Below are positions 6,753-32,551 of a stretch of 64,000 bases of DNA, one piece after another. Every line of letters begins with the position of its first letter. Position 1 is the stretch's first letter. The notes under the pieces were generated by a model. That model searched no databases and was not told the DNA's origin. It saw nothing but the letters and a program-made list of their open reading frames with translations. A program made the translations under genes and the position numbers. The DNA is from Gammaproteobacteria bacterium (GTDB lineage Bacteria; Pseudomonadota; Gammaproteobacteria; SZUA-140), in NCBI GenBank assembly GCA_016712635.1, contig JADJQS010000006.1:511216-575215 (forward strand). Direction: 5' to 3'.

Positions 6753-8429
6753 ATGAGTGAAAGCTTCGCACAACTTTTTGAACAGACCCAGGTAGAAAAG
6801 CAGATGCGTCCCGGTTCCATCGTGATCGGGATCGTCGTCAGCGTCGGCCCTGATGTCGTCGTGGTCAATGCCGGCCTTAAATCCGAGGGCGTCATCCCGA
6901 TCGAGCAGTTCTTCAATGACAGCGGCGTCGCCGATGTGCGCGTCGGCGACTCGATCGAAGTCGCGCTCGACGCCGTCGAGGACGGCACCGGAGAAACCCG
7001 CCTCTCCCGCGAGAAGGCCCGCCGCATCAAGCAGTGGGACATTCTCGACCAGGTCATGGCCAACGGCGACAAGGTCGTCGGCCGCATCAGCGGCAAGGTC
7101 AAGGGCGGCTTCACAGTCGACATCGGCGATATCCGCGCGTTCCTGCCCGGCTCGCTGGTCGACATCCGCCCGGTGCGCGACCTGTCCCACCTGGAAGGCA
7201 AGGATCTCGAATTCAAGATCGTCAAGACCGACCGCAAGCGCAATAACGTCGTCGTGTCGCGCCGCGCCGTGGTCGAGAGCGAAGGCAGCGCCGAGCGTGA
7301 TGCCCTGCTGTCCAACCTGGAGGAAGGCCAGGTGGTCAAGGGCGTGGTGAAGAACCTGACCGATTACGGCGCGTTCATCGACCTCGGCGGCATCGACGGC
7401 CTGCTGCACATCACCGACATGGCGTGGAAGCGCATCAAACAGCCGGCGGACATCGTCAATATCGGCGACGAGATCAACGTCAAGATCCTCAAGTTCGACC
7501 GCGAACGCAATCGCGTGTCGCTGGGACTCAAGCAACTGGGCGAGGATCCGTGGGAGAACCTCACGCGGCGCTACCCGGTCGGCTCCAAGGTGTTCGGCAA
7601 GGTCACCAATATCGCCGACTACGGCTGCTTCGTCGAGATCGAGGAGGGCGTGGAAGGCCTGGTGCACGTGTCGGAGATGGACTGGACCAACAAGAACATG
7701 CATCCCTCGAAGGTGGTGCATCTGGGCGACGAGATCGAGGTCATGGTGCTCGACATCGACGCCGACCGCCGCCGCATCTCGCTCGGCATCAAGCAGTGCC
7801 AGTCGAATCCGTGGGAGGATTTCGCGGGCCGCCACAACAAGGGCGACAAGATTGCGGGCGTGATCAAGTCAATCACCGACTTCGGCATCTTCGTCGGACT
7901 GGAAGGCGGCATCGACGGCCTGCTGCATCTGTCGGACCTGTCCTGGAACGCCGTAGGGGAAGAGTCGGCTCACAACTTCAAGAAGGGCGACGAGATCGAG
8001 ACCGTTATCCTGGCGATCGATCCGGAGCGCGAGCGCATCTCGCTCGGCATCAAGCAGCTCGAGCGTGATCCGTTCGAACTGTACGTGGCGGAGCATCCCA
8101 AGGGCAGCATTGTCACCGGCAAGGTCACCGCGATCGACGCCAAGGGCGTGACAGTGACGCTGGCGGACAGCGTGGAAGGTTATATCCGCTCGGCAGACCT
8201 GTCGCGCGAACGGGTGGAGGACGCCCATTCCGTGGTCACCGTCGGACAGGACGTGGAGGCGAAGTTCACCGGCGTGAACCGCAAGAACCACACCATCATG
8301 CTTTCGATCAAGGCGAAAGACGAGCATGAGGAGGCCGAAGCGGTCAGGGAATACAGCCGTTCCTCTTCCGAATCCGGTGGGGCAACGACGCTGGGGGATC
8401 TGATCAAGGAGCAGCTCGACAACAAATAA
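6753..8429 (+). CDS. rpsA: 30S ribosomal protein S1 (six S1 domains).
   Basis: 558 aa with repeated S1 motifs. Starts [10 protein letters not shown]. Confidence 0.95.
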
Positions 8430-12858: not shown

Positions 12859-14388
12859 ATGATCATCCAACCGGTCATCCTGTCAGGCGGCTCGGGTACC
12901 CGTCTGTGGCCGCTGTCGCGGGAACATTATCCCAAGCAGTTACTGGCCCCTGTCAGCGACCTGACCCTGCTGCAGTCCACTGTCAACCGCCTGGATCACC
13001 TTGAGGCGATGCAGGATGTCCGGATCGCCGCCCCGCTGGTCATCTGCAACGAGGAACACCGTTTTCTGGTGGCCGAGCAATTACGCCAACTGGGTAAGCC
13101 GCCTGGCCAGATCCTGCTCGAGCCGGTCGGACGGAATACCGCGCCGGCGGCCACCCTGGCGGCCCTGCATGCCGGGGACAGGGGCGCCGTGCTGTTGATC
13201 ATGCCGGCCGACCACCTGATACGCGACGAGGCGGCCTTTAGCCGGGCTGTAATCATTGGTGCGCGGCTGGCTTCGGCTGGCCAGGTCGTCACCTTCGGTA
13301 TCCTGCCGACACGCGCCGAGACCGGTTATGGCTACATCCACAAGGGCGCTGCCCTTGCGGGTGAGGCGTCAGGCGCGAGGCGTGAAGCGGTAGGGAAGGG
13401 AGCACTTTCACCTGACACCTCTCGCCTGACGCCTCACCTCATAGAACAGTTCGTTGAAAAGCCGGATGCCGCCACGGCGCAATCCTATCTCGACTCCGGA
13501 GAATATCTCTGGAACAGCGGCATCTTCATGGTGCGCGCCGCGGTGTGGCTGGAAGCGATCATGCGCCACCGCCCGGACATTTATTCCGCTGCGGAGCAGG
13601 CGTACACGAGCGGCAAGCAGGACGGAGACTTCTACCGCGTGGACAAGAAACTGTTCGCCACGTGCCCCAGCGACTCCATCGACTACGCCGTCATGGAAAA
13701 GCTCACCGCCTCCATCTCCTCACCCCTCACGCCTGACGCCTCACCGATAACCGCGGCGGTGATCCCGCTGGATGCCGGCTGGTCGGACGTCGGCGCCTGG
13801 TCCAGCCTGTGGGAGGTCTCGCCGCAGGACGCCGACGGCAATATCCTGCGTGGCGACGTCATCGCTGAAGACACTCGCAATTCCCTCCTGTACGCCGAGC
13901 ACCGCCTGCTCGCCGGCGTAGGCCTTGATAACATTATTGCGATCGAGACCGCCGACGCCATCCTGGTCGTGCACAAGGACAAGGCGCAGAACGTGAAGGA
14001 TATCGTCGCCCACCTGAAGAAGCAGGGGCGCAGCGAGCACCAGATCCACCGCCGCGTACATCGTCCATGGGGCAGCTACGAAGGCATTGACAAGGGGGAA
14101 CGTTTCCAGGTCAAGCGTATCACGGTCAAGCCGGGTGCTTCGCTCTCCCTGCAGATGCACCACCATCGCGCCGAGCACTGGATTGTCGTGAAGGGGACCG
14201 CCCGCGTCGTGCGCGGGGACGATGAATTCCTGCTCAGTGAAAACGAGTCCACCTATATCCCGATCGGGGTCACCCACCGCCTGGAGAATCCGGGAACGCT
14301 CCCGCTCGAACTGATCGAGGTTCAGTCGGGATCATATCTTGGGGAAGACGATATCGTCAGGTTCGAGGATCACTACGGAAGGAAGTGA
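12859..14388 (+). CDS. manC: Bifunctional mannose-1-phosphate guanylyltransferase / mannose-6-phosphate isomerase (ManC/CpsB type). Carries two in-frame repeat-derived insertions.
   Basis: N-terminal nucleotidyltransferase (ILSGGSGTRLWPLS) and C-terminal cupin (QMHHHRAEHWIVV). 509 aa versus about 480 typical. Confidence 0.9.
   Translation: MIIQPVILSGGSGTRLWPLSREHYPKQLLAPVSDLTLLQSTVNRLDHLEAMQDVRIAAPLVICNEEHRFLVAEQLRQLGKPPGQILLEPVGRNTAPAATLAALHAGDRGAVLLIMPADHLIRDEAAFSRAVIIGARLASAGQVVTFGILPTRAETGYGYIHKGAALAGEASGARREAVGKGALSPDTSRLTPHLIEQFVEKPDAATAQSYLDSGEYLWNSGIFMVRAAVWLEAIMRHRPDIYSAAEQAYTSGKQDGDFYRVDKKLFATCPSDSIDYAVMEKLTASISSPLTPDASPITAAVIPLDAGWSDVGAWSSLWEVSPQDADGNILRGDVIAEDTRNSLLYAEHRLLAGVGLDNIIAIETADAILVVHKDKAQNVKDIVAHLKKQGRSEHQIHRRVHRPWGSYEGIDKGERFQVKRITVKPGASLSLQMHHHRAEHWIVVKGTARVVRGDDEFLLSENESTYIPIGVTHRLENPGTLPLELIEVQSGSYLGEDDIVRFEDHYGRK
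13360..13440 (+). repeat. Complete heptamer-arm element inserted in frame inside manC (about 81 nt, encodes GEASGARREAVGKGALSPDTSRLTPHL).
   Basis: ggtgaggcgtcaggcgcgaggcgtgaagcg..cctgacacctctcgcctgacgcctcacctc. TGA triplets of the left arm are mutated or out of frame. Confidence 0.75.
13727..13746 (+). repeat. Right-arm (CCTCAC) fragment in frame inside manC (encodes SSPLTPDASP).
   Basis: tcctcacccctcacgcctgacgcctcacc. The corresponding segment is absent from typical ManC between the MEK and VIPLDAGWSD blocks. Confidence 0.65.
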
Positions 14389-14566
14389 GGCGTGAGGGGG
14401 CAGGTGTGAGGCGAAAATACTAACTATGGGAGGTCTGATTAATTCGTCATGCCCGCGCAGGCGGGCATCCAGGTCCTTGAATTACTGGTTTCCCGCTTTC
14501 GCGGGAATGACAACCAGGTAATTATTCAGGTTTCCCTAACGCCTAACACCTAACGCCTCACCAACA
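14385..14566. repeat. Composite element between manC and gmd. Heptamer-arm element (arms at 14385-14418 and 14535-14566) with a CCCGC double-hairpin element nested in its loop (14446-14511).
   Basis: agtgaggcgtgagggggcaggtgtgaggcg ... gtcatgcccgcgcaggcgggcat..ttcccgctttcgcgggaatgac ... cctaacgcctaacacctaacgcctcacc. Confidence 0.8.
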
Positions 14567-14578
14567 AAGAGGTTAGCC

Positions 14579-15664
14579 ATGTCAAAAACAGCCTTAATCA
14601 CCGGCATCACCGGCCAGGACGGGGCCTATCTGGCGGAATTTCTGCTGAAGAAGGGCTATGTCGTGCACGGGATCAAGCGGCGCACTTCGCTGTTCAACAC
14701 CGACCGCATCGACCATCTGTATCAGGATCCGCACGTCGACAACCGCCGGTTCATCCTGCACTACGGCGACATGACGGATTCGAGCAGCCTGATCCGGATC
14801 GTGCAGGAGGTGCAACCGGACGAGATCTACAACCTGGCTGCGCAAAGCCACGTCGCGGTGTCATTCGAGGAGCCGGAGTACACGGCGGATTCCGACGCCC
14901 TGGGGGCTCTGCGTCTGCTCGAGGCGATCCGGATCCTCGGCCTGGAGAAGAAGACCCGCTTCTACCAGGCCTCGACCTCCGAATTGTACGGACTGGTGCA
15001 GGAAGTGCCCCAGAGGGAGACGACGCCATTTTATCCGCGCTCGCCCTATGCCGTGGCAAAGCTCTACGCCTACTGGATCACGGTCAATTACCGCGAGGCC
15101 TATGGCATCTATGCCTGCAACGGAATCCTGTTCAATCATGAAAGCCCGATCCGGGGCGAGACCTTCGTCACGCGCAAGATCACGCGCGCGCTGGCGCGCA
15201 TCAAGCTTGGCCTGCTCGACTGCCTGTATCTCGGCAACCTGGACGCGCGCCGCGACTGGGGGCACGCACGCGATTACGTCGAGGCGCAGTGGCTGATGTT
15301 GCAACAGAAATCAGCGGAAGATTTCGTCATCGCAAGCGGAATTCAGTACAGTGTGCGCGATTTCGTCGACGCCGCCGCGAGTGAACTCGGGATGCGCATC
15401 TCATGGAAGGGACAGGGTGCCGAGGAGAAGGGCTATGATGCAGCCGGCCGCTGCATCGTGGCAGTCGATCCGCGCTATTTCCGTCCGACCGAAGTGGAAA
15501 CCCTGCTCGGTGATCCGAGCAAGGCCAGGGATAAGCTGGGCTGGACGCCGCGCACCAGCTTCAAGGAACTCGTCGCTGAAATGGTGCGCGAAGACCTCAA
15601 GGTAGCCGAACGGGATGAACTGTGCAGGAGAGAAGGGTTCAGGACGTTTGATTACCATGAATAA
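14579..15664 (+). CDS. gmd: GDP-mannose 4,6-dehydratase.
   Basis: [29 protein letters not shown]. 361 aa. Confidence 0.95.
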
Positions 15665-15667: not shown

Positions 15668-15703
15668 ATGTGAAGTGTGAGGAGTGAGGTGTTAGGCGTA
15701 TGA
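15668..15703. repeat. Left arm of the heptamer element that carries the four-helix-bundle gene.
   Basis: tgtgaagtgtgaggagtgaggtgttaggcg immediately after the gmd stop. Confidence 0.7.
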
Positions 15704-15733
15704 GCTTACAGAATTTCCACGGAGGGAAATCCA

Positions 15734-16096
15734 ATGAGCAGAATACATCACGGACTCTTGGCGTGGCAGCACGCTATGAAGTTTGTAAAGGATATTTATG
15801 AGGTCACATCGGCATTCCCAAAATGTGAAATGTACGGGCTGACAAGTCAAATGAGGCGTGCCGCGGTTAGCGTGCCATCCAACATCGCGGAAGGTGCCGG
15901 AAGGGCCAGTTTCAGGGAGTTTGGGCAATTTCTCACGATAGCTCGTGGCTCTCTGTGCGAGCTCGAGACCCAGGTTGTCCTGGCTAAAGAGTTAGGCTAT
16001 ATCGCAGAGAACGATGATTTACTATCCAAAATGGAAAAACTGTTCGCTTTACTGGGTGGACTGATCAATTCTATCGGGAAACGATATCAGCAATGA
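15734..16096 (+). CDS. Four-helix-bundle protein (23S rRNA intervening-sequence protein / Avd-like family). Low-GC cargo inside the repeat element.
   Basis: 120 aa. [46 protein letters not shown] are hallmark motifs. Local GC is visibly lower (about 47%) than the neighbours. Confidence 0.8.
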
Positions 16097-17088
16097 CGCT
16101 TCACGCCTCACACCTAACACCTGACCTCTCTATCTACGTTGCCGGCCATCGCGGCCTGGTCGGTTCCGCCCTGATGCGTCGATTTCAAGCAGCAGGATAC
16201 AGCAATCTGGTTACACGGACGCATCGTGAGCTGGATCTCACCGACCAGGCGGCGGTGCGCGAATTTTTCCGGACGGAGAAACCGCGGCGGGTGCTCCTGG
16301 CCGCGGCGAAGGTCGGCGGGATACTGGCCAACGACACCTATCCGGCGGAATTCATCCGCGAGAACCTTGCCATCCAGACCAACGTAATTCACGAGGCCTG
16401 GCGCTCCGGCGTCGAGCGGCTCCTGTTTCTGGGATCTTCCTGCATCTATCCGCGCGAGTGCCCGCAGCCGATGAAGGAAGAGTATCTGCTTACCGGCCCG
16501 CTGGAGAAGACCAACCGCGCCTACGCGGTGGCGAAGATCGCCGGCATCGAGATGTGCCGCTCCTACAATCAGCAGTACGGAACCCGTTACCTTGCCGTGA
16601 TGCCGACCAACCTGTACGGTCCGGGTGACAACTTCGACCTGCAGAACTCCCATGTGCTGCCCGCACTGATACGCAAGATGCACGAGGCAAAGCTCGCCGG
16701 ATCACCCGCGGTCACGGTATGGGGAACAGGGACGCCGCGCCGGGAATTTCTGCACAGCGACGACCTCGCCGACGCCTGCCTGTTCCTGCTGAGCCTGCCG
16801 GAAGAGCAATACGCCTCACTCCTTACGCCTCACGCCTCACCGCCGTTGATCAACGTCGGATGCGGTCAGGACGTCACCATCCGCGAGCTGGCCGAGACCG
16901 CGCAGCGTGTCGTCGGATACCCGGGCCGCCTGGAGTTCGACACCAGCAAGCCTGACGGGACGCCGAGAAAGCTGCTGGACGTATCGCGCCTGAGCGCGCT
17001 TGGCTGGACGCCGCGCATCGGCCTGGCCGACGGAATCGCGCAGGTATATCGCTGGTACCTGGATCAACCCGCCTCGCAGGCGCATTGA
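16093..17088 (+). CDS. fcl: GDP-L-fucose synthase (GDP-4-keto-6-deoxymannose 3,5-epimerase/4-reductase). The true start is probably near 16129. Contains one in-frame right-arm insertion at 16813-16841.
   Basis: [14 protein letters not shown], the YPAEFI motif and the C-terminal domain. The first ~12 codons of the ORF-track model ([12 protein letters not shown]) are repeat-encoded. The internal [10 protein letters not shown] insert is absent from E. coli Fcl. Confidence 0.85.
16098..16128. repeat. Right arm (CCTCAC repeats) closing the element around the four-helix-bundle gene. Overlaps the annotated 5' end of fcl.
   Basis: cgcttcacgcctcacacctaacacctgacctc. Confidence 0.7.
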
Positions 17089-17139
17089 TCCGGAGGCTGG
17101 AATCTGTTTCAAAATTGATGATAGGCGGAAACAGCAGGC

Positions 17140-17222
17140 GTCGTCCCCGCGAAAGCGGGGATCCAGTGGCTTTAAGCCGATGAAAAGCAGAAACACTGGA
17201 TTCCCGCTTTCGCGGGAATGAC
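17140..17222. repeat. CCCGC double-hairpin inverted element, copy 2, between fcl and gmhB.
   Basis: gtcgtccccgcgaaagcggggatccag ... tggattcccgctttcgcgggaatgac. The same termini and architecture as 14446-14511. Confidence 0.75.
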
Positions 17223-17276
17223 GCATTTATCTTTCATTGCAAACATGCATTTCCAATTTTGAGATAGGTTCCAGTT

Positions 17277-17822
17277 ATGGCAGGCAGGGCGCTGATACTC
17301 GATCGGGACGGCGTGGTCAATATCGACAGGGACTATGTCCACAAGATCGAAGATTTCGAGTTCGTCGACGGCCTGTTCGAGCTGTGCCGCATGGCGGCCG
17401 GTCAGGGCTACCGCATCATCATCATCACCAACCAGTCCGGAATTGGACGCGGCTATTACACCGAGGATGATTTTCACCTCCTCACCGGCTGGATGAAGGC
17501 CAGATTCGAGGAGGAGGGTATTACGGTGGCGCAGGTCTATTACTGCCCGTATCATCCCGTGCACGGCATCGGGAAGTACAAGCAGGACTCCTACGACCGC
17601 AAACCCAACCCCGGCATGATCATCAAGGCGGCGCAGGACTTCGATTTGGACCTTTCAAACTGTATACTCGTCGGAGACCGCGAATCCGATATGAAGGCCG
17701 CACAGACCGCGGGTGTCGGCCATAAGGTCCTGTACCGTCCGGAAGGCGGCATTGATGCCCCGACGCGGGCGGACTACGTCGTCAACGAGCTGAACACCGT
17801 GCTCGAATTGGTCACGGATTGA
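17277..17822 (+). CDS. gmhB: D-glycero-beta-D-manno-heptose-1,7-bisphosphate 7-phosphatase (HAD family).
   Basis: [13 protein letters not shown] motif [23 protein letters not shown]. Confidence 0.85.
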
Positions 17823-17945: not shown

Positions 17946-18518
17946 ATGAGTGACCGTATCGTAAAAGCGCTGGAAGACCACGAGAACGTCCTTGCGGCCG
18001 TGCGGGATAACCTCGTCGCCGATATCGAGCAGGTGGCGCAATGCCTGATCGACTGCCTCGGCCGGGGCCACACCATCTTCTGGTGCGGTAACGGCGGAAG
18101 CGCGGCGGACGCACAACACATCGCCGCGGAACTTGTCGGCCGCTTCGAGCGCGAACGGAAAGCGCTCGCCTCCATCGCGCTGTCCACTGATACCTCAATC
18201 CTGACCAGCGTGGGAAACGACTATGGCTTCGACAGCATCTTCAAGCGCCAGGTCGAAGCACTGGTTCGTCGGGGTGATGTGCTCGTGGGCCTGTCCACCT
18301 CGGGCAACAGCCCGAACGTGGTGCGCGCCATCGAACAGGCGAACGGCCAGGGCGCCACCACGATCGGCGTGCTGGGCAGAGACGGCGGCCGGATAATAAA
18401 ACTTTGCCGCCTGTCGATAGTTGTGCCGGCGGAAAACACCGCGCGCATCCAGGAGATGCACGGGCTAATCGGGCACATACTGTGCGATCTGATTGAAAAG
18501 AGCAGGACTGAGGACTGA
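17946..18518 (+). CDS. gmhA: Phosphoheptose isomerase (SIS domain).
   Basis: IFWCGNGGSAADAQHIAAE, LSTSGNSPNV. The stop lies in the repeat (..RTED*). Confidence 0.85.
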   Translation: MSDRIVKALEDHENVLAAVRDNLVADIEQVAQCLIDCLGRGHTIFWCGNGGSAADAQHIAAELVGRFERERKALASIALSTDTSILTSVGNDYGFDSIFKRQVEALVRRGDVLVGLSTSGNSPNVVRAIEQANGQGATTIGVLGRDGGRIIKLCRLSIVVPAENTARIQEMHGLIGHILCDLIEKSRTED

Positions 18519-18630
18519 GTGCTCAGGACTGAGTAAAAGACAAAATCTACCCGAGCCAGATAAGCTAAGTTTAAATAGAAATAATGTTTATGGGTTTTCA
18601 CTCAGTCCTAAGACCTCAGTCCTCAATCCT
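18506..18630. repeat. Variant heptamer-arm element with ACTGAGG / CCTCAGT arms between gmhA and cysC.
   Basis: ggactgaggactgagtgctcaggactgag ... cactcagtcctaagacctcagtcctcaatcc. Confidence 0.75.
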
Positions 18631-18648
18631 ATTATTTAGGAGTTCATC

Positions 18649-21972: not shown

Positions 21973-23098
21973 ATGAAGATTCTAGTAGTGACGGGAATAT
22001 TCCCTCCGGATCATGGTGGTCCGGCGAGCTATGTGCCGGAGATTGCACAGGCGTTGTCTGTGAAACATACAATAGTGTCAGTAATAACCTTGAGTGACTT
22101 GTTGAACCACAGCGATGAAAACTATACGTTTCCGATCTTGAGAATTTTACGGAAAGCTAACAAGATTTCTCACATTTAGAATAGTTAATACCATAAGAAA
22201 ATATTCCAAAGAGGCAGATGTCATATTCGTCAATGGACTGATCTTCGAAAGCATCGTTGCATGCAAATTATTCTCAAGGAAACCGTTAGCCATAAAAATC
22301 GTTGGTGACCTGATTTGGGAAAAGGCGAAACTATCATCACCTGACACGGTATCCATCGATGAATTCCAGAGAAATGTGGCGGGTATAAAGTGGAAAATTT
22401 TGAAATGGATCTACAATAAGCTGATCAATCAGTGCGATGCCATTATCGTACCAAGCCTATATCTATGCAGGATTGTTAAAGGTTGGGGAATCGATACTGC
22501 AAAAATTAACGTCGTATACAACTCCGTGAAACCACAGTCTCTTCCATATGCTAATTATGGAGAAGGCGGCAATGTCGATTGCGTTACAGTGGCGAGATTG
22601 GTGCCTTGGAAGGGAATTAGTGAGCTTATAGATGTCGTTTGTGAAAACAAGTGGACTTTAAATGTTATCGGTGACGGCCCCCTAAAGGAGGATCTTGTAT
22701 GCAGAGCGCTCAAGCACAGTAATAATTCTGTACAATTTCTTGGTTATGTACCTCGTGATCAGGTGCATTCTGAAATTTCCAAAGCCAAGATATTCATCCT
22801 TAACTCGACATATGAGGGATTGCCACACATTGTTCTCGAGGCGAAACAAGCCGGAGTAGCCGTTATTGCAACCGCTGTTGGTGGAACACCTGAGACAATA
22901 ACAGATGGCGTAGATGGATATCTTATTCCCCCGGGGGACAATGCCATGCTAAGAGAGAAAATCGGATATTTGCTATCCAACAATGATAAGCGCACTCAGG
23001 TAGCATCGAAAGGTAGAGAACAGGTTTTGCATAACTTTTCATTTGAAACCATGGCTACCAAAACTGAGAAAATCCTTGAAAATACCCTGAATAGGTAA
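21973..23098 (+). pseudogene. GT4-family glycosyltransferase interrupted by a single frameshift near 22140-22180 (ORFs 21973-22179 and 22376-23098 plus an unlisted bridging segment).
   Basis: The N-terminal piece is KILVVTGIFPPDHGGPASYV. The C-terminal piece has EGLPHIVLEAKQAGVAVIATAVGGTPE. The bridging segment IVNTIRKYSKEADVIFVNG.. reads in the frame of the second ORF. Confidence 0.55.
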
Positions 23099-23106
23099 AC
23101 CGGCTG

Positions 23107-24306
23107 GTGCATATCATGGGTCATCCGATAAATATCCTCCTTCTCAGCAAAGATCCCACCTTATTCGAGCAAAATGATGCTGTCATCGGTGACACAAGAA
23201 AGCGACACATCGCCTACTCGAATATACTGCAATCAAGGTACCCCGGAAGCCAAATAAAAGTCATAACCTACACAAAGAGAACTTCGCTACTTCAGCATGA
23301 GAAAATCAATCAATCTCTCTCGATTTTCGGGACCGCCTCTGCTCACCGCATCACCTATTTGGCCGGTGTGATAAGAATGCTGCCTAAAACGCTGGAGGAT
23401 GGATGGCGGCCAGATATCGTCACTGCTCAGACCCCATGGGAAGAAGGCATCGTCGGATACGTGATATCAAGAATATTCAATGCTAAGTTCATACTGCAAA
23501 TCCATTTCGATTTGTTTTCTGAGCACTGGCGAAAAGAAAACAGATTTAACCTGTGGCGTAACTTGATTGCGCGCGCATTGATCAAACGATCTGATGCTGT
23601 TCGAGTAGTTTCAGAATTCCAAAAACACCAACTGGTGGATTGCCTCGGAAAACCATCCGGCACGATCCGGGTTATACCTGTAGGGGTGAATTTTCAGCCA
23701 TTAGATGGTGAAAAGTCTGCATTCAAACGAAAGATAGCTATTTCATTGGAGGCTAAAAAAGTTGTCTTGTTTGTTGGTAAATTTTATGCACCAAAAAATC
23801 TCCAACTATGGATTGATGTTGCGCAGCTTATTAGCCGTGATAACCCAGACGTAATGTTTGTCATGGCAGGCAACGGGCCCATGTTTGGTGAGATAAGGGA
23901 GGCGGTCATCAACCGTGGACTATCAGATAGATTTATTTTCTTGGGTTATGTCAAGCATGAGGAATTGCCCGGAATATATGCGGCCGCCGATGTCTTTCTA
24001 CTTACCTCATATTATGAGGGATTTGGCAGAGTCGTCCTTGAGGCCTATCTAGCCAAAATCCCTGTTGTGAGTACCAAATGCGCCGGAACACTCGACCTCA
24101 TCGAATCAGGTGTCACTGGAATATTAGCTCCTGTTGGTGATGCACAAACGTTAGCAGATGGTGTGATAAACCTGCTCTCCGCTGATGAACTGAGGATGTC
24201 TTATGGGACTAAGGGACATGCGAGAGTGAATGTGAAATATGGTTTTGCTAACTTATCAAATAAGTTAGTCGACTTCTGGGGAAGTGTTTGCGATGAGTCA
24301 ACCTGA
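23107..24306 (+). CDS. GT4-family glycosyltransferase.
   Basis: 399 aa. EGFGRVVLEAYLAKIPVVSTKCAGTLDLIESGVTG motif. Confidence 0.8.
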   Translation: MHIMGHPINILLLSKDPTLFEQNDAVIGDTRKRHIAYSNILQSRYPGSQIKVITYTKRTSLLQHEKINQSLSIFGTASAHRITYLAGVIRMLPKTLEDGWRPDIVTAQTPWEEGIVGYVISRIFNAKFILQIHFDLFSEHWRKENRFNLWRNLIARALIKRSDAVRVVSEFQKHQLVDCLGKPSGTIRVIPVGVNFQPLDGEKSAFKRKIAISLEAKKVVLFVGKFYAPKNLQLWIDVAQLISRDNPDVMFVMAGNGPMFGEIREAVINRGLSDRFIFLGYVKHEELPGIYAAADVFLLTSYYEGFGRVVLEAYLAKIPVVSTKCAGTLDLIESGVTGILAPVGDAQTLADGVINLLSADELRMSYGTKGHARVNVKYGFANLSNKLVDFWGSVCDEST

Positions 24307-25150
24307 TTTTATCGGTATAGGAGCGCAAAAATCAGGTACTTCATGGATTTATGCGTGCCTACATGTACATCCTCAGGTTTGTATACCGCGTAAGGAAATA
24401 CATTTTTTCAGCAGAGAGCGAAACTGGTCTAAAGGATATGATTGGTATGCAGGAAACTTTGACGGCTGTCATGCGGGGCAGGTAATCGGTGAATTCTCAA
24501 CTTCATACTTGGCGGATGAGTACACGCCTGCGAGGATCCATAATAAATTTCCTGATGTGAAACTGGTCGTGTCTCTACGCAATCCAATTGACAGAGCCTA
24601 TTCCAATTATATTAACGATATCAAAACAGGTATTGTGTCCAGTTCTACGGACTTTCTGGATGCGTTGGATAGCCATCCTGAATACATGAACCAAGGTCAG
24701 TACGCGCGCCAAGTAAATCGTTACCTAGATTATTTTAAGCCAGCTCAATTGCTGATATTAATCTACGAGGATAGTTTGATCGATCCCGGGGACTATATAA
24801 AAAAAATATACAGATTTCTCAATATTGACCATGAATTTATACCTGAATTTATTCGTACAAAGATAAATCCTGCCAGGATTCCACGTCATGTCTGGATTGA
24901 TTCCGGGATAAGGGCTGTCTCCAGTTACCTGAGATCAAACGGGTTTCGTACTCTATTCTGGCAAATAAAAAAATCAGGCCTCGCGGAAAGAATTCGGACA
25001 CTGAATACAAGAATGGATATCAGACGCGCTGATGTGATAGACACTCAAACTAGACATTATTTGTATGAGAAATATGATATCCAGTCAGAAATTTCTGCTA
25101 TTTCAAAAATAATTGGAAGAGATCTTATCGAGTGGCGCATTCAAACATAA
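24293..25150 (+). CDS. Carbohydrate sulfotransferase (PAPS-dependent sulfotransferase domain).
   Basis: 5'-PSB motif IGIGAQKSGTSW and 3'-PB motif VVSLRNPIDRAYSNY. The start is probably the second ATG (MSQPDF) overlapping the upstream GT stop. Confidence 0.8.
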   Translation: MSQPDFIGIGAQKSGTSWIYACLHVHPQVCIPRKEIHFFSRERNWSKGYDWYAGNFDGCHAGQVIGEFSTSYLADEYTPARIHNKFPDVKLVVSLRNPIDRAYSNYINDIKTGIVSSSTDFLDALDSHPEYMNQGQYARQVNRYLDYFKPAQLLILIYEDSLIDPGDYIKKIYRFLNIDHEFIPEFIRTKINPARIPRHVWIDSGIRAVSSYLRSNGFRTLFWQIKKSGLAERIRTLNTRMDIRRADVIDTQTRHYLYEKYDIQSEISAISKIIGRDLIEWRIQT

Positions 25151-26204
25151 CAGTGATTTGCCAGGTTGTTGACGAGCATGATCCTATTAATGCAACAGCT
25201 GTCAGATGGATTCGTGTTCTGTCACAAAAGAATCAGGTAGGGAAAGTAACTGTCCTGGCATTAAAAGTCGGTGAATATAACTTGCCTGATAATACGAGAG
25301 TGTTCTCGTTTAGAGGAAGAAATCGCATTTCTACTTTGATTAAGTTCTATTCCCTGATAATAAAAGGAGTGATGGTAAATAAAACGGATTATTATTTTAT
25401 CTATCAGGGTGGCCCATATCCGTTGCTACTTTTACCATTTAAGCTTTTGGTGGTAAAAACGTATACCATTGGAAAGCACATCCACATATTACCTTTATGA
25501 TGAAATTATACGCGCGTTACTGCGACACCGTTGTATTTACTTCAACAACCAATGCATTTCCCATGCAATTACCCAATCTCAGAGTTATTGGGCAGGGCGT
25601 TGATACAGAAAAATTTCGGGTGTTGGGAAAGGAAAGAAATAAAGATCTTGTCATTGTTGGCAGGATTGCCCCGGTCAAGCGCTTGGAAAGCATAATTTTC
25701 ATATTGACGCATTTGAATCTCAAGTACGGAATAGCTCCGAAAGTAGATTTATATGGTCCGATATCAGGACAGGATAAGAAATATAAGGAGCACATAGACC
25801 ATCTAATCTGTGAGCAGAAATTGAATGATCAGATTATTTTTCATGGGCCAGTTAGGCAGGATGCCCTCCCGGAGATATTTAATACCCACAAGCTCCTTGT
25901 CAACTTTTCTGATACTGCATTGGATAGAGTTGTCGTCGAAGCTATGGCCTGTGGATTGCCAGTGTTCTCGACGAATAACTGCGTTAGAGAGATCATCCCC
26001 GACGCTTATCATGATATTCTGACTTGTGTTGACCAACACGAAAACCATGCGCTGCTTGCTGAATTGATCTACTCACTGCTTTTGCTGCCTGATGCCATCA
26101 GAACCCATATCGGCAGGGACCTAAGAGAAATTATATTACATCATCATAGTGATATAACCCTGTTCGACAGAATGTTAGCCGAAATCGGAAACTATGAAAA
26201 ATAA
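25132..26204 (+). pseudogene. GT4-family glycosyltransferase split over two frames (25132-25500 and 25497-26204).
   Basis: The N-domain piece ends ..GKHIHILPL*. The C-domain piece (VVEAMACGLPVFSTNN) starts in a different frame. Together about 357 aa, the size of a whole GT4. Confidence 0.5.
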
Positions 26205-26994
26205 ATTCTCGATAAAAATTGGCGTCAGAAACTCATTCATCATTGCCAATGGAATGTATAAAAACATCAGAAACTCACTGCCTGATAAGCGGATTGTCGC
26301 AATTCACGATATCAATGACTCGATCAGATTCCGAGATAAAATGCATTGGCTGCGCGAAACATATGACATTCTTAGTTTGGGCGATTTGCTCGAAACTAGC
26401 ATAGGCAACAAAACACAGATCGCCATAACATTTGATGACGGCTATCTGTCATGGCGTGATAATGTTATTCCGGTGCTGGTGGATCTCAATATTCCTGCCA
26501 CTTTTTTTATTTGCTCTGGTTTTGTTGGTCTTGATGAAATTGATGCAAGAAAGTTTGCTGTTAATTGCTTCAGGAGAAAACAGAAGCTGCTTCCACTTCA
26601 AGCAGAGCACATCAGATCGATATCTGATCATAAATTGTTCGAGATAGGTGGACACACGGCGCATCACCTGGATCTCGGAAAAGAGTATCCCACAGAAATT
26701 CTGATAGATGAAATTATAAGAGACCGTGAACTATTAGAGGATTGGACAGGCGATGATGTACGATGGTTCGCATATCCATTTGGAGGAAGAATTAATGTCT
26801 GTAATCAGACAAAAGAATTTGTCAGAAATACTGGTTATAGCGCTGCGTTTACTATCATTCCTAGATCAGCGAACGAGATCGAGGATTTCTATGAAATAGG
26901 GAGGGATAGCCTGGACATCTATGCATCAGATCTTTTATGGAGAAACTGGCTTAACGGCGGTTACGACATGATTAAGAAAACAAGGATTTCGTAA
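26194..26994 (+). CDS. Polysaccharide deacetylase (NodB homology, CE4 family).
   Basis: ITFDDGY, FFICSGFVG, GGHTAHH motifs. Confidence 0.8.
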   Translation: MKNKFSIKIGVRNSFIIANGMYKNIRNSLPDKRIVAIHDINDSIRFRDKMHWLRETYDILSLGDLLETSIGNKTQIAITFDDGYLSWRDNVIPVLVDLNIPATFFICSGFVGLDEIDARKFAVNCFRRKQKLLPLQAEHIRSISDHKLFEIGGHTAHHLDLGKEYPTEILIDEIIRDRELLEDWTGDDVRWFAYPFGGRINVCNQTKEFVRNTGYSAAFTIIPRSANEIEDFYEIGRDSLDIYASDLLWRNWLNGGYDMIKKTRIS

Positions 26995-27602
26995 TGAACA
27001 AGTTTGAATATGTGAGGAATATTATCCTTTCTGAACCAGTGAATAACAAAAGTCTGCTCGATGTCGGATGCAGAGGATGTGAATTAAAGTCTTATGTCGG
27101 AGATGTGGTTGCATACAAAGGTGTGGACCTATTCCAAAATCCATCGAATAGCGTTGACTACGTGTTGGATGTAGAAAATGGACTTCCCATGGAAAATAGT
27201 TCAAGTGACTATGTCGTAGCCTTGGATTTGGTTGAACATCTTAATGATTTTCAAGGCGGCTTAGAAGAATTACTGAGGGTGGCGCGAGAGAAACTCATCG
27301 TAATGCTTCCAAATATGGCTCACTGGGTTTTCAGGAAGGAATTCCTTTTTCATGGAAGGATCGGTGCAAAATATGATCTTTCATATGGAATGGGAAAAGA
27401 CCGACATCGCTGGTTCACTGTGTTGCCACAGACGGATGAATATATAAAAAGGTTTTGTGACGAAAATAATCTCGAGTTACAGGTCATCTGGTTTAATGGA
27501 GGAAGAAAGAAAGAACTATTCTATCGAGTAACGAAATTCCTGGGTTTTCCGCCATCAATAGGCGTGTGGGCATCACTTTATATAATGAAAAAAATGTCAT
27601 AA
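26994..27602 (+). CDS. Class I SAM-dependent methyltransferase.
   Basis: LLDVGCRGCE motif I, VVALDLVEHL. 202 aa. Confidence 0.7.
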   Translation: MNKFEYVRNIILSEPVNNKSLLDVGCRGCELKSYVGDVVAYKGVDLFQNPSNSVDYVLDVENGLPMENSSSDYVVALDLVEHLNDFQGGLEELLRVAREKLIVMLPNMAHWVFRKEFLFHGRIGAKYDLSYGMGKDRHRWFTVLPQTDEYIKRFCDENNLELQVIWFNGGRKKELFYRVTKFLGFPPSIGVWASLYIMKKMS

Positions 27603-27796
27603 ATATATCGTGCGTACACCATCATGCATGATGGAAACGAGAGCAGAGTTTCGTCGTAGAATTGAGTCGTTATCTGCGTCTAAGCACACCTTTACTATTC
27701 ATGGATTGTCTGTGTCGCATTAATCGATGCATTTACCCATCGCATATGGTCACTGGTCTCTCTCTTTTGATTCTTACTGGAAAATAAGAGAATCAA

Positions 27797-29059
27797 ATGC
27801 GTAAGATAGTATCAGATGTTGGGTACATGGGGTTCTCACAACTCCTTGTCGCACTGTCGCAGATAGCGCTCCAAGTCTATGTGGTCAGGACCACGACAGT
27901 TTATGAATATGGTGAGTACATAGGCAGTCTAGTCATAGTGACGTTAGTTGAAGCAATTTTTGTCGCAAGAGGCGGTGAACTGGCTTTGCGATATGTCGGC
28001 ACGCACTGGAATAAGAGTGATTTCATCACTGCTCGGCAATACGCAACAGCGATAATACGCATCGATAAATATGTAAACTGGTTACTTTATATCTTGCTCG
28101 TTACTTTGGCATTTGCGACCTATGAGGTGCTGAATTTAAATCTATATTACGTGATATTTCTTTCGCTTGTTATTCCAGCTCAGGTAGGTTACGGAGTGTA
28201 TAAAAGTCTATTCATAATTTCATCTAGACTCAGGGGGCAATCTGTATTTGAAATAATCTTCGCCGTCGTGCAGATATCTACAGGAGCCATTGGCGTTTAT
28301 TTATTCAGCATCCCTGGTTTGATTGCATCAGTTATTGGAACAGCTATGGTGAAGACTGTTTTAGCTAGGGTTATGACGGAAAGTTGGTGGCCTGATAACG
28401 TCAAAGGTCTGGATTCCCTTTCCACAAATAATAATATCAATATAACAACCTGGTGGAGCGACAGTATACATTCTATTATGCGAAATTCATTTTTCTCTGG
28501 GTCTAATCAAATAGACATAATCTTGCTCAATATATTCAGAGGTGCAGAAACAGTAGCTTTGTATAAAGTCGCAAAATCGTTATCTGCAATTCCTATAAAA
28601 ATTGCCGCCCCTGTCTGGGCGGCCTTACGTCCTCGAATCATGAAATCATGGAACAACGGCGACAGGGCGAGATTAGTCAAGATAATATTGACACCTTCAT
28701 TATCCATGCTGGCAGTTCTTCCCGTTATGCTGCTGCCTGCTTCGCTGTATGGTGATAAGTTTATTGCCATTATATACGGGCCTGACTATGCGTCCGCGAT
28801 AGACTCTATTCTTGTATTGCTCGTCGGTGTATGGATCTTTAATGTGACTACAGGTTGGTTCAGGTTCTGGATATTAATAATTAAGGATAGATTAGCAAGT
28901 ACAAATATATCGGCAATCCAGTTTTTTATGCTGCTAGTTCTAGGTCTGCTGTACGGAAAGGAAACAATTGTTTCAATGTCCGAGGTTGTGAGCGTAACCA
29001 TGATTGTCGTCAGCGTGATGTGCTGGTTTGAATTATTCAGAAAACTAAAAACGCTGTGA
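27797..29059 (+). CDS. wzx: Wzx-type O-unit flippase (MOP / polysaccharide biosynthesis protein family).
   Basis: 420 aa, about 12 predicted TM segments, hydrophobic throughout. Position within a GT cluster. Confidence 0.65.
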   Translation: MRKIVSDVGYMGFSQLLVALSQIALQVYVVRTTTVYEYGEYIGSLVIVTLVEAIFVARGGELALRYVGTHWNKSDFITARQYATAIIRIDKYVNWLLYILLVTLAFATYEVLNLNLYYVIFLSLVIPAQVGYGVYKSLFIISSRLRGQSVFEIIFAVVQISTGAIGVYLFSIPGLIASVIGTAMVKTVLARVMTESWWPDNVKGLDSLSTNNNINITTWWSDSIHSIMRNSFFSGSNQIDIILLNIFRGAETVALYKVAKSLSAIPIKIAAPVWAALRPRIMKSWNNGDRARLVKIILTPSLSMLAVLPVMLLPASLYGDKFIAIIYGPDYASAIDSILVLLVGVWIFNVTTGWFRFWILIIKDRLASTNISAIQFFMLLVLGLLYGKETIVSMSEVVSVTMIVVSVMCWFELFRKLKTL

Positions 29060-29184
29060 ACTCTCGTATTCAATGGCGAGAGAAGCTGCTATCGGCCATT
29101 GTTGGGTATCTAGAGGTCAATCAATCATGAGAAATCTGGCCATTAGTAACCCATTGTTTGTCTCATTAGTTCTCCCTCGTAGTA

Positions 29185-30315
29185 TTGATTGGTAATGTCC
29201 TTCTCAGCATTTCGAATACTGTATCCATGTTAAATATTATGTTCATTGTGCTAGCACATCTACTTGTCATTTACTCATTATTTAATAACGGTGTGCAACA
29301 GCGTGACTGGCTGAATCCAATAAACATAATTCTTCTGATTGGAATGGTGCGATTCAGTCTGCCTCTGCTTCTACTTCAATTTGGATCTCCAAGTATCGAG
29401 ATGTTCCAAAAGATGAATATCGGGCAAGGTGAGAACTGGCGTCATGCAAATATTCTTGCACTAGTCGGGTTGCTGGGCGTCGCTGCCGGTTGGAACATAA
29501 CGATTAGACCTTGGAGAAAAGCATGTCCCCATAGGCGGGAACTACCAAAGAGCGTTGCTTATTTGGCTGTGACAGGGATGCTAGCAGGCGCAATATTTTT
29601 GTCAGTTTTTATAGAAAGTAATTCTACACTCGAGGAAGCCATATTGACAGGCAGCTTCAGAGGTACTGATATACAGGCAGGCACCGGCAAGTATTTCCAT
29701 CTAGGCTTAATGTTAATTTCATGTAGCGTAATCCTCTCTTCGTATCTCATTAAACGAGGAAATGTATCCTATATGGTCGCACTCCTACCCGTGCTCATCG
29801 CCACGATTTTTTATTTCATTCTCGGTGGCAGGACCAGAGCGATTACACCGTTAATAGCTGGACTACTTGTAATTTGGTATGAAAGAGAAAATTCAACATT
29901 TACAGCAAAGAATACGTTTGTTTTGTTTATTCTTTTTCTTGGTTTGCTCATGTTTTATAGCGGGTCAGTGCTTTATCGTGCACGACTCGGATTGGAAGGG
30001 TTTGCTCATGGCCTGTCTTTTATAGGTCTTGTGCAATATCTGTCTACAGCGATATGGATGGAAATAGGTCAGTTGCATGCATTGGCCGGGTCTCTTCTAG
30101 TTGGGCCTGGCGTACTGGGAGGGTTGACATTTACCAAATTGCTTTGGCCTATCAGTGAGTTTCTCAATATACCCGGTAATAGTACAGGCATATATCTTGC
30201 GGAGACGCTTGTTTATCACAGCATACGCAGTCGGTGTATTTTTCCTGTCGAAGCTGCTAGGGTCACTGATAAAAAAATCATAATGATGAAGCAGAATATG
30301 ATTGTCAGAAAATAA
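29185..30315 (+). CDS. Wzy-like O-antigen polymerase (multi-TM membrane protein).
   Basis: 376 aa, highly hydrophobic with a larger loop region. Adjacent to wzx. No firm motif, so the assignment is by context. Confidence 0.5.
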   Translation: MIGNVLLSISNTVSMLNIMFIVLAHLLVIYSLFNNGVQQRDWLNPINIILLIGMVRFSLPLLLLQFGSPSIEMFQKMNIGQGENWRHANILALVGLLGVAAGWNITIRPWRKACPHRRELPKSVAYLAVTGMLAGAIFLSVFIESNSTLEEAILTGSFRGTDIQAGTGKYFHLGLMLISCSVILSSYLIKRGNVSYMVALLPVLIATIFYFILGGRTRAITPLIAGLLVIWYERENSTFTAKNTFVLFILFLGLLMFYSGSVLYRARLGLEGFAHGLSFIGLVQYLSTAIWMEIGQLHALAGSLLVGPGVLGGLTFTKLLWPISEFLNIPGNSTGIYLAETLVYHSIRSRCIFPVEAARVTDKKIIMMKQNMIVRK

Positions 30316-30349
30316 AATGGCTTCCAAATGACCAGTAAGGTTCGCCACG

Positions 30350-32457: not shown

Positions 32458-32551
32458 GATAAATAGCCTTATCTCCTGTTTCTATATTAGTATAAATCAT
32501 AAGACGATGTCATTGTGCTGATCAAGATTTGCACGGCAACGAGATAAGAAC

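Follow-up and report, generated by a model that had tools for sequence, protein, structure and literature searches.

The elements at 14.4 and 17.1 kb of the window (the whole stretch of 64,000 nucleotides analysed here) are best explained as head-to-head (HH) dimers of a hairpin already known as CGTC-1 REP, dRS3, NTS or SRM, forming REPIN-like units linked to single-stranded DNA; we put the probability of this reading at roughly 75%. Membership in the family is indicated by the arms themselves, because one of them is an exact NTS and three of the four fit the SRM motif. The original prediction that an element recurs at the two loci, each time as two inverted CCCGC/GCGGG-type hairpins, is confirmed: the four arms were found, each folding as a hairpin, within 14445-14512 and 17139-17223, limits that were widened by 1 nt per side so that the full CGTC/TGTC tag is included. 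The accompanying claim of a third, new repeat family is not upheld, as the arms correspond to the known hairpin (PMC3733652, PMC11893778).

Each element consists of two inverted 28-nt hairpins of the form CGTC-ATTCCCGC-GAAA-GCGGGAAT-CCAG, arranged HH with the CGTC tags pointing outward (Table 1). The tags of the four arms are CGTC, TGTC, CGTC and CGTC, the loops are GCAG or GAAA, and the stem starts with AT in three arms and with GT in one; the unpaired tag and the CCAG tail are kept in all four. Folded as single-stranded DNA, each arm alone gives a GC-rich stem of 7-8 bp closed by a loop of 4 nt (-8.6 to -10.3 kcal/mol, z -4 to -5.5), and the inverted arm pair of the 14.4-kb element (27-28 nt) is 81% complementary. 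Variation between the arms preserves the hairpin through compensatory changes; in the related genome L239, the counterpart of arm 17139-17166 has its closing T replaced by C, which restores a G-C pair. In the fold of the complete 17.1-kb element, the ends of the spacer are paired as well (-34 kcal/mol, z -9.7).

Table 1. Coordinates of the dimers and of the surrounding repeats in the window
Feature	Position	Strand	Remarks
Heptamer element, left arm GTGAGGC GTGAGGG GGCAGGT GTGAGGC	14385..14412	+	overlaps the manC stop codon (14386-14388)
Middle inverted repeat, left half GGGAGGTCTGATTAATT	14428..14444	+	abuts the NTS dimer (0 nt); paired to 14520-14536 when folded as RNA
NTS-like arm, variant: CGTC-ATGCCCGC-GCAG-GCGGGCAT-CCAG	14445..14472	+	2 mismatches to the NTS definition; SRM motif matched; G-C replaces T-A at stem position 3 (compensatory); loop GCAG; single-stranded DNA hairpin -10.3 kcal/mol, z -4.2
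12-nt spacer GTCCTTGAATTA	14473..14484		between the arms of the 14.4-kb dimer
NTS-like arm: TGTC-ATTCCCGC-GAAA-GCGGGAAA-CCAG	14485..14512	-	2 mismatches to the NTS definition; SRM motif matched; hairpin -8.6 kcal/mol, z -4.8
Middle inverted repeat, right half AATTATTCAGGTTTCCC	14520..14536	+	7 nt (ACCAGGT) from the dimer
Heptamer element, right arm CCCTAAC GCCTAAC ACCTAAC GCCTCAC	14534..14561	+	complementarity to the left arm 78%; its end and the gmd start codon are 17 nt apart
NTS-like arm, variant: CGTC-GTCCCCGC-GAAA-GCGGGGAT-CCAG	17139..17166	+	3 mismatches to the NTS definition; C-G at stem position 3 (compensatory), G.T pair at position 1; SRM motif failed at one position; hairpin -9.2 kcal/mol
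29-nt spacer with complementary ends	17167..17195		between the arms of the 17.1-kb dimer
Canonical NTS arm CGTCATTCCCGCGAAAGCGGGAATCCAG	17196..17223	-	identical to the NTS definition as published, CGTCATTCCCGCGMAVGCGGGAATCYRG (0 mismatches)

The two elements align over their arms only, with 44 invariant columns, and their spacers, GTCCTTGAATTA (12 nt) at 14.4 kb and TGGCTTTAAGCCGATGAAAAGCAGAAACA (29 nt) at 17.1 kb, are unrelated. The view that these are two copies of one element thus holds for the shared 28-nt arms and not for a unit of 66-83 nt. The shorter spacer resembles, in length and in part in sequence, the 12-13-nt dimer spacers at loci L171, L129, L195 and L043. A search with the 27-mer consensus GTCATTCCCGCGAAAGCGGGAATCCAG, allowing at most 3 mismatches, returned three matches in the window, with 0.00 expected from 100 shuffles; the 28-nt NTS definition at up to 6 mismatches retrieves exactly these four arms and no other match in 64 kb. 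A chance likeness of GC-rich hairpins, for which only the GC-rich background (60-67% GC) could be adduced, is vanishingly improbable, considering the 3-4 observed matches against 0.00 in shuffles, the exact identity of one arm with an independently published 28-nt motif and the conservation of the unpaired tag and tail in 4/4 arms. Mere GC-hairpin resemblance, which the original prediction had named as the alternative to a true repeat, is ruled out by this result together with the alignment of the arms.

NTS/SRM is the target motif of SsnA, a single-strand nuclease of the GIY-YIG group cd10448 that recognizes sequence as well as structure and does not act on RNA (Nat Commun 2025, PMC11893778). 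Under the strict rule that the authors used in their own search (at most 1 mismatch to CGTCATTCCCGCGMAVGCGGGAATCYRG), arm 17196-17223(-) is the only NTS in the window, with the other three arms failing at 2, 2 and 3 mismatches, which are mostly paired stem changes. The degenerate SRM motif (HGTCWY N0-2 YYVSBRH N0-5 WNVSBRG N0-2 RNCYNB; shuffle mean 0.68 per window) matches three of the four arms, and arm 17139-17166 fails owing to a G in place of W. The positions critical for SsnA cleavage and binding, GTC 5' of the palindrome and C directly 3' of it, are present in all four. Stem changes of the kind seen in the two variant arms abolished SsnA activity in Neisseria assays (PMC11893778), and the two arms altered at stem position 3 may perhaps not serve as Ssn substrates. 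The core of the Neisseria dRS3 repeat, ATTCCC-N8-GGGAAT, is exact in arm 17196-17223 only; the window contains no RS/NIME arrays, further dRS3 cores or clustering, and a link to filamentous prophage integration, as in dRS3/NIME, was not seen here.

The elements equally fit the CGTC-1 REP family, defined by a CGTC/TGTC tag, an 8-bp stem starting from AT, a 4-nt loop and a CCA tail, in which copies are numerous per genome, tags-outward dimers located between co-directional or convergent ORFs are the predominant organization, and both heterodimers and complementary-ended spacers are on record (Di Nocera, De Gregorio & Rocco 2013, PMC3733652). Tag, stem, loop and tail agree with this description, the HH dimers lie downstream of ORFs between co-directional genes, and a heterodimer and a complementary-ended spacer occur here as in the family. 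With REPINs and BIMEs the elements share the inverted doublet of short hairpins, the unpaired 4-nt tag, the lack of target-site duplications and a presumed single-strand biology. They differ from the REPIN-RAYT system in the tag, which is CGTC/TGTC here and GTAG there, and in the associated enzyme family, GIY-YIG (Ssn), whose role in mobility is only putative.

As in REPINs and BIMEs, the doublet appears to be the conserved unit. Along all of its 68 nt, the dimer at 14.4 kb shares 83-84% identity with dimers in L171 (a Hydrogenophilus MAG) and L195 (a Gallionellales MAG), the former having the same heterodimer make-up. The occurrence of a short-spacer heterodimer of 68-69 nt in several genera suggests that the dimer rather than the monomer is transmitted. 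Other arrangements were also found: among 305 arms in a viral-contig sample there were 48 HH pairs, 40 tail-to-tail (TT) pairs, 27 head-to-tail (HT) pairs and 135 singles, and a scan of viral contigs for short-spacer dimers gave only two further genuine dimers, both of which lack flanking inverted repeats.

These arrangements bear on the possibility that the elements are classical MITEs, that is, non-autonomous elements derived by deletion from an insertion sequence and moved as double-stranded DNA by a cut-and-paste transposase that recognizes 27-nt terminal inverted repeats. The 27-nt inverted ends, the small size and the intergenic sites would suit such elements; each supposed terminal repeat, however, folds on itself and elsewhere occurs also as a single, tail-to-tail or tandem copy, and the interiors are unrelated and of unequal length (12 versus 29 nt). 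The original prediction had called for a search for target-site duplications, and direct repeats were looked for at the junctions (slash) of both dimers, ..TTAATT/CGTC and GACA/ACCAGG at 14.4 kb and ..AGCAGG/CGTC and GACG/CATTTA at 17.1 kb; there were none. Nor was a RAYT (Y1_Tnp) or other transposase domain detected among 59 ORFs of the window scanned against Pfam or NCBIfam, some of which had no match at all, in line with the report that CGTC repeats have no associated transposase (Di Nocera et al., PMC3733652). We therefore regard a MITE origin as very unlikely.

ORFs of the enzyme family linked to the hairpin are found in other loci. The same 27-mer occurs in >120 viral-contig stretches, and in 5 of these loci ORFs with a GIY-YIG domain (PF01541) adjoin NTS arms. 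In one of them, L064, the GIY-YIG ORF at 7823-8134 has NTS arms on both sides, the same layout as the published NTS-ssnA-NTS arrangement, which looks like an insertion sequence and for which Ssn-driven transposition is a published hypothesis only. An HMM built from the 5 NTS-adjacent GIY-YIG ORFs revealed no ssnA homologue in the 64-kb window (best E = 1.2), and none was found in the related loci. A YhbQ-like match at 57584-57835, obtained by phmmer with an approximate query, was rejected as an out-of-frame ORF within holB that carries no Pfam domain. Compared with the NTS/SRM-SsnA system, the present elements have the same 28-nt hairpin, the directional CGTC head and the C right after the palindrome, and they too are mostly intergenic and bracket genes for cell-surface structures. 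The host, in contrast, is an uncultured gammaproteobacterial MAG and not Neisseria, ssnA is lacking from the window, and the apparent density is low, with 4 arms in 64 kb, present only as isolated HH dimers without large clusters, and 0 in three relatives.

The dimers are located in the manC/gmd and fcl/gmhB intergenic spacers, each just downstream of a stop codon and between co-directional genes, all on the plus strand. This setting raises the question of an RNA-level role, in which the inter-cistronic hairpins of the manC-gmd-fcl-gmhB operon would stabilize upstream mRNA, provide RNase III/RNase E sites or give rise to a small RNA as claimed for WsnRNA46. REPs are found chiefly downstream of ORFs, and their transcription is plausible (Di Nocera et al., PMC3733652), and the 14.4-kb spacer has a very stable predicted RNA fold, a single long nested hairpin that takes up the whole manC/gmd spacer (-83 kcal/mol, z -6.2). 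The Rfam model RF02625 (WsnRNA46) represents an HH dimer from Wolbachia that is built in the same way (GTCAT..CCAG / CTGG..ATGAC) but has different stem sequences. It aligns over its whole length with the 17.1-kb dimer (17121-17239; E 4e-6), but its 36.7 bits fall well short of the gathering score, 65.3. Furthermore, no intrinsic terminator was called at either dimer and no T-run follows, the sole nearby call (17089-17101) lying upstream of the 17.1-kb dimer, and SsnA is inactive on RNA. Between the window and L239, the closest other species (about 91% nucleotide identity), the fcl/gmhB spacer is about 95-97% identical, above its coding flanks (about 91%), which speaks for an RNA-level role. 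In three syntenic relatives, the same spacer measures 10-25 nt and has no NTS, so that no essential operon function is implied. An RNA-level role is compatible with the main explanation; as an account of the dimers in its own right, we consider it rather unlikely.

The two loci differ in their distribution among relatives. The 17.1-kb dimer is kept in L202 and in L239 with 3 changes over its 85 nt, and is thus conserved across about 9% nucleotide divergence; the canonical arm 17196-17223(-) has the same sequence in both. No NTS arms were detected in about 63 kb of syntenic sequence of L121, L237 and L238. At manC/gmd, all five related genomes have a heptamer element, and NTS arms are present there in the window only. 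In L239 the heptamer element is of another type (AGGACTG) and without NTS; it is orthologous to and 87% identical with that of L237, and the AGGACTG type is likely the ancestral state. The BLAST homology between the window and L239 ends at 14384 and restarts at 14568, which are the outer limits of the heptamer element, and the loop of the window gave no significant alignment with those of the relatives. Resemblance of the window loop flanks to the loops of L239/L237, with TCTGATT^GGGTATTATT as an empty site and TAATT as a 5-nt duplication, was dropped, since shuffle tests did not support it (p = 0.4-0.75).

In the window, the 14.4-kb dimer does sit inside the loop of a heptamer element, between its arms 14385-14412 and 14534-14561, as originally predicted. 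From the outside in, three layers can be distinguished, namely the heptamer arms, a 17-nt inverted repeat and the NTS dimer, with arm complementarities of 76-81%; within the middle repeat the dimer is off-centre, with 0 nt on one side and 7 nt on the other. A motif nearly identical to the left half of the middle repeat is found on the flanks of an NTS dimer in L195, and in L100 it makes up the terminal inverted repeats of an element of 270 nt. The right half also resembles the ATTCNGGTTT(T)C motif preceding the right arm of other heptamer elements, which makes its parent element ambiguous. In a scan of viral contigs with GGGAGSCTCTGATTAAG, the matches were mostly coding coincidences; one with (GTGAGGC)3 gave 18 loci, 0 of them with NTS arms, and so no basis for nesting statistics, and a literature search for the heptamer unit GTGAGGC yielded primer noise only.

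The nesting had been taken to give a relative order of insertion, and this order is not established. Searches of genome contigs with Gmd as query returned syntenic relatives only, whose spacers could not be aligned, and thus no clean empty site for either dimer; a metagenome-contig search with the manC 3' end led again to the L121 organism and nothing else. For the Gmd and ManC of the window, there were no exact-protein records, and those of GmhB, Fcl and the four-helix-bundle protein come from short contigs only, ending at or near the repeat. At manC/gmd, homology breaks at the heptamer ends. Because of this break and the loops that cannot be aligned, the 177-nt composite of heptamer arms, loop and NTS dimer may have arrived as a single cassette that took the place of the older AGGACTG-type element through recombination or gene conversion. 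The long quasi-palindrome could also stem from one inverted duplication of a half-unit, again with no sequential insertion on site; the similar arm complementarity of the three layers would agree with either route. Each layer, however, is found separately elsewhere: 10 heptamer elements in the window are without NTS, NTS dimers without heptamers are present at 17.1 kb and in L171 and L129, and GGGAGG..TGATTAA occurs without NTS in L100. A one-step inverted duplication would, moreover, be symmetric, in contrast to the off-centre dimer, and the arms form a heterodimer, with paired stem changes and a different loop, that recurs in another genus (L171). Taken together, the single-event origins are possible, though we think them somewhat improbable.

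A preference for loops, the other consequence drawn from the nesting, cannot be claimed from the window. Heptamer loops make up ~7.5% of its intergenic DNA, and the probability that at least one of two dimers falls into such a loop is therefore ~0.14, which is not significant; the 14.4-kb dimer itself was marginal in a test for flanking inverted repeats (p = 0.04). The idea is partly borne out elsewhere, where larger flanking hairpins enclose 4 of 22 isolated HH dimers in an off-centre position (binomial P ~0.002) and where, in Halothiobacillus neapolitanus, all CGTC-1 dimers are inside 41-bp palindromes (Di Nocera et al., PMC3733652). Nesting is ordinary for the CGTC-1/NTS family. Compared with H. 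neapolitanus, the embedding palindrome here is built from a tandem-heptamer inverted repeat and a 17-nt inverted repeat, and one of the two copies is embedded. Repeated hairpins can offer preferred targets in their apical loops, as for the IS1397/ISKpn1-type insertions into REP loops. There, a full insertion sequence with its transposase enters the REP loop, whereas here a REP dimer lies inside another palindrome.

On the reading as HH dimers of the NTS-type hairpin, the arms would fold when DNA becomes single-stranded during replication, transformation or conjugation, and a small Ssn-family GIY-YIG nuclease would bind the hairpin and cleave only the strand that carries it, a few nucleotides 5' of CGTC, as known from the literature. 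Since such a cut is strand-specific and 5' of the tag, an HH dimer would present one cut site per strand, one on each side of the dimer. The gmd, four-helix-bundle and fcl genes lie between the two dimers, an 'NTS-gene-NTS' arrangement that in Neisseria lowers recombination of incoming single-stranded DNA. We infer that the dimers may act as REPIN-like selfish units that spread via single-stranded intermediates and would persist best where a hairpin pre-exists or is tolerated; this preference would account for the 14.4-kb copy at the apex of a longer palindrome made of the heptamer arms and the 17-nt repeat. More speculatively, HH dimers, with or without an outer stem of ~17 bp, could be the unit that replicates in a REP system relying on Ssn instead of a tyrosine transposase, inserting preferentially into the single-stranded apical loops of existing hairpins, with the off-centre placement at 14.4 kb, in L123, L171 and L195 and in all dimers of H. 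neapolitanus as its footprint. We hold this proposal to be doubtful.

The analysis removes a false lead, in that the 'third repeat family' is the CGTC-1 REP/NTS hairpin, for which the partner nuclease was described in 2025. It adds low-density NTS-type dimers in an uncultured environmental gammaproteobacterium, a minority of dimers placed off-centre in larger hairpins and one dimer conserved with hairpin-keeping variation. If the proposal of loop insertion is true, three-layer nests would let insertion events be ordered. Should the loop preference hold genome-wide, it would be the first mechanistic hint as to how CGTC repeats, which have no known transposase, spread, and the published idea that NTS-ssnA-NTS resembles an insertion sequence would become testable.

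At both loci (14445-14512 and 17139-17223) the sequence description in the original prediction holds: each consists of two inverted arms of 27-28 nucleotides, and every arm forms a small palindrome of its own. The 14.4-kb arms are 27 nt long, 81% complementary and separated by 12 nt, and each holds a perfect 7-8-bp CCCGC/GCGGG hairpin. When both strands of the two loci were aligned four ways, all 44 invariant columns fell within the arms, the arm consensus GTCATTCCCGCGAAAGCGGGAATCCAG gave three matches at ≤3 mismatches where 0.00 were expected, and all four arms are predicted to form ssDNA hairpins (-8.6 to -10.3 kcal/mol, z -4 to -5.5), indicating that the two copies are truly related rather than merely similar GC-rich hairpins. 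A looser scan of the 64 kb returned exactly these four arms and no others. The dimers have only their arms in common, their spacers (GTCCTTGAATTA and TGGCTTTAAGCCGATGAAAAGCAGAAACA) being unrelated, and the inspected junctions revealed no target-site duplication at either copy.

The observation was thus correct, but the proposed third repeat family is one already described. CGTC-tagged REPs were defined by Di Nocera et al. (PMC3733652); their CGTC-1 family, identical with the dRS3 repeat of Neisseria, combines a CGTC/TGTC tag with an 8-bp stem starting with AT, a 4-nt loop and a CCA tail, and its members occur chiefly as HH dimers whose tags face outwards. Its longer oriented form was redefined in 2025 (Nat Commun) as the Neisseria Transformation Sequence (NTS), CGTCATTCCCGCGMAVGCGGGAATCYRG, alongside a degenerate Ssn-related motif (SRM) present across phyla; SsnA, a 94-aa GIY-YIG protein, binds NTS solely as ssDNA and cuts a few nucleotides upstream (PMC11893778). 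The window dimers are further instances of this NTS/CGTC-1 family: arm 17196-17223(-) agrees with the NTS definition at 28/28 positions, the remaining arms differ at 2, 2 and 3, three of the four fit SRM, and the positions reported as critical (GTC 5' of the palindrome, C directly 3') are kept in all. The variation preserves the hairpin, as arm differences are mostly paired, with stem position 3 being T-A in both minus-strand arms, G-C in 14445-14472 and C-G in 17139-17166. Both dimers are therefore 'heterodimers' in Di Nocera's sense, joining a canonical to a stem-variant arm.

Both dimers lie within an LPS/O-antigen region, one on each side of the gmd-to-fcl segment, and neither resembles an intrinsic terminator. 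A GC-poor island in the window (41-46% GC in a 60-67% background) encodes glycosyltransferases, a sulfotransferase, methyltransferases and a polysaccharide deacetylase, contains no NTS arms, and is probably an O-antigen cassette gained horizontally.

Coordinates of genes, NTS dimers and heptamer elements in the window and in syntenic loci
Feature	Sequence	Position	Strand	Unit or remark
manC	window	12859-14388	+	
in-frame heptamer elements in manC	window	13361-13437; 13717-13744		
manC-gmd heptamer element	window	14385-14561		GTGAGGC; arms 14385-14412, 14534-14561
middle repeat	window	14428-14444; 14520-14536		
14.4-kb dimer	window	14445-14512		arms 14445-14472(+), 14485-14512(-)
gmd	window	14579-15664	+	
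gmd-fcl heptamer element	window	15670-16125		arms 15670-15697, 16098-16125
four-helix-bundle gene	window	15734-16096	+	TIGR02436/PF05635 ('23S rRNA intervening-sequence protein')
fcl	window	16093-17088	+	
in-frame heptamer element in fcl	window	16813-16840		
17.1-kb dimer	window	17139-17223		arms 17139-17166(+), 17196-17223(-)
gmhB	window	17277-17822	+	then gmhA, cysC, also +
gmhA-cysC heptamer element	window	18497-18637		AGGACTG
GC-poor island	window	22000-36000		
(GTGAGGC)14	window	44515-44617		
(GTGAGGC)12	window	45781-45865		
manC-gmd heptamer element	L239	1729-1893		AGGACTG
manC-gmd heptamer element	L237	11531-11665		AGGACTG
manC-gmd heptamer element	L121	9802-9983		AGGACTA
manC-gmd heptamer element	L238	11486-11555		TGGGTGA

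The heptamer element hosting the 14.4-kb dimer fills the manC-gmd spacer and has a 121-nt loop; loops of the other window elements measure 16-68 nt, apart from one of 400 nt containing the four-helix-bundle gene. Folded as RNA (-83.1 kcal/mol, z -6.2), 14380-14570 forms a single extended, nested hairpin with a middle layer that the original prediction lacked, in which GGGAGGTCTGATTAATT pairs with AATTATTCAGGTTTCCC. The dimer directly adjoins the left half of this middle repeat, and 7 nt separate it from the right half. In L195, a Gallionellales MAG, the left-half motif again stands next to an NTS dimer (TAGGGAGGCTCTGATTAAGT..), and in L100 (5055-5325) it supplies the perfect terminal inverted repeats of a 270-nt element without NTS. 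Written (TA)GGGAG[GC](C)TCTGATTAA(GT), it is found in unrelated contigs, namely in the window, at L195 1364-1381, in this L100 element and at L225 1148-1164, and may be the terminus of a small mobile element. The right half also resembles the ATTCNGGTTT(T)C motif located 5' of the right arm in other heptamer elements, and its membership is ambiguous.

Five syntenic loci were compared with the window, whose ManC is NCBI MBK8163333.1. In L202, from the same species, fcl-gmhB holds an identical 17.1-kb dimer and manC-gmd falls outside coverage; in L239 (90-94% nt identity) the dimer is retained with three changes in 85 nt, one of which gives the variant arm a G-C pair in place of G.T. The fcl-gmhB spacer is better conserved than the adjacent coding DNA, a point in favour of a possible RNA-level role of the dimers. 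This spacer lacks NTS in L237 (ManC 86%; 25 nt), L121 (ManC 81%; ~10 nt) and L238 (ManC 81%; 13 nt), and no NTS arms occur in the ~63 kb of these three loci. Presence is thus lineage-specific, and the dimers are derived features of the window's lineage.

At manC-gmd, L239, L237, L121 and L238 all carry a heptamer element without NTS; that of L239 has a loop of ~95 nt and is orthologous (87% identical) to that of L237. Homology between the window and L239 stops at 14384 and restarts at 14568, a gap that coincides exactly with the outer boundaries of the heptamer element, and the window's loop has no significant similarity to those of the relatives. It appears from these alignments that the entire element was exchanged, beyond mere addition of a dimer. 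The nesting is real, but the inference drawn from it has partial support only: the insertion order is plausible but unproven, as the break at the element's ends keeps replacement of the whole element as a cassette a live rival to in-place insertion.

Within the window the heptamer elements are more unusual than the NTS dimers. In five related genomes a tandem-heptamer inverted repeat, with differing heptamer units, spans the interval between the manC stop codon and the gmd ribosome-binding site. The elements act like cassettes that can be exchanged at one fixed position. L121 has matching heptamer arms at the gmd-fcl site; the four-helix-bundle ORF keeps its full 120 aa in the window, L239, L202 and L204 and is truncated in L237 (85 aa) and L238 (75 aa). 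Heptamer elements also lie in frame within genes: ManC has ~30 extra residues (..GEASGARREAVGKGALSPDTSRLTPH..; 509 aa against a 467-position profile), and the heptamer-derived peptide TPHASP in Fcl is conserved in relatives. The perfect (GTGAGGC)14 and (GTGAGGC)12 arrays, 1.25 kb apart, each pair with a short inverted arm across nearly identical loops of 67-68 nt; such long arrays are slippage candidates. The gmhA-cysC spacer holds a second heptamer type as an inverted repeat with 42-nt arms (81% complementary), retained there in L239.

That loops are preferred targets finds no support in the window, where heptamer loops make up ~460 of ~6,100 intergenic nt and the probability of at least one of two dimers falling in a loop is ~0.14. 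Across all the loci sampled, 4 of 22 isolated HH dimers are flanked by a significant inverted repeat, each at p ≤ 0.007 (binomial P 0.002); the 14.4-kb dimer is marginal in this test (p = 0.04). In each dimer-in-hairpin case the implied loop extends further on one side of the dimer than on the other, a position more readily explained by insertion into a hairpin loop already present than by symmetric inverted duplication; the like is described for all CGTC-1 dimers of H. neapolitanus (Di Nocera et al., PMC3733652). With a small sample, selected in part by locus, the preference is a lead, short of a result.

The 14.4-kb dimer, one of a short-spacer class of 68-69 nt, is 84% identical to the dimer of L171, a Hydrogenophilus MAG, with common ATGCCCGC..GCGGGCAT / TTCCCGCTTTCGCGGGAA pairing, and 83% identical to that of L195, but just 67% identical to the 17.1-kb dimer of the same window, which suggests that the whole dimer is the inherited unit, as in REPINs. 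Rfam WsnRNA46 of Wolbachia is an HH dimer of like architecture that aligns end to end with the 17.1-kb dimer (36.7 bits, below the gathering threshold of 65.3). A 27-mer query with a free loop matched at least 120 viral-contig stretches; the 305 arms among the matches listed comprised 135 singles, with neighbours arranged as 48 HH, 40 TT and 27 HT. Also among the matches listed, a small GIY-YIG ORF (PF01541) stands beside an arm in five loci, one of which, L064, has arms on both sides and reproduces the published NTS-ssnA-NTS layout. A profile from these five ORFs found nothing in the window (best E = 1.2), and none of 59 window ORFs scanned has a transposase-type domain. In L026 (922-1263), L089 (3660-3995) and L090 (2922-3335), GIY-YIG stop-to-stop ORFs extend upstream into an NTS arm, translated as SFPRRRESS or SFPRKRESS; gene callers may produce spurious N-terminal extensions on such genes. 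Two short-read assemblies of the window's species break at or close to the repeat, L204 (end, 1881-1994) within the left NTS arm and L203 (start, 1-70) 9 nt past the right arm; the repeat is probably multi-copy or difficult to assemble in these samples.

By analogy with Neisseria (PMC11893778), the arms would be candidate sites for ssDNA-specific binding and cleavage by an Ssn nuclease, and an HH dimer would be cut outside the dimer, once per strand. The two dimers around gmd-fcl would mimic the 'NTS-gene-NTS' layout, which lowers transformation in Neisseria (PMC11893778). The dimers may spread as REPIN-like units via single-stranded intermediates and may be retained in hairpin-tolerant spacers.
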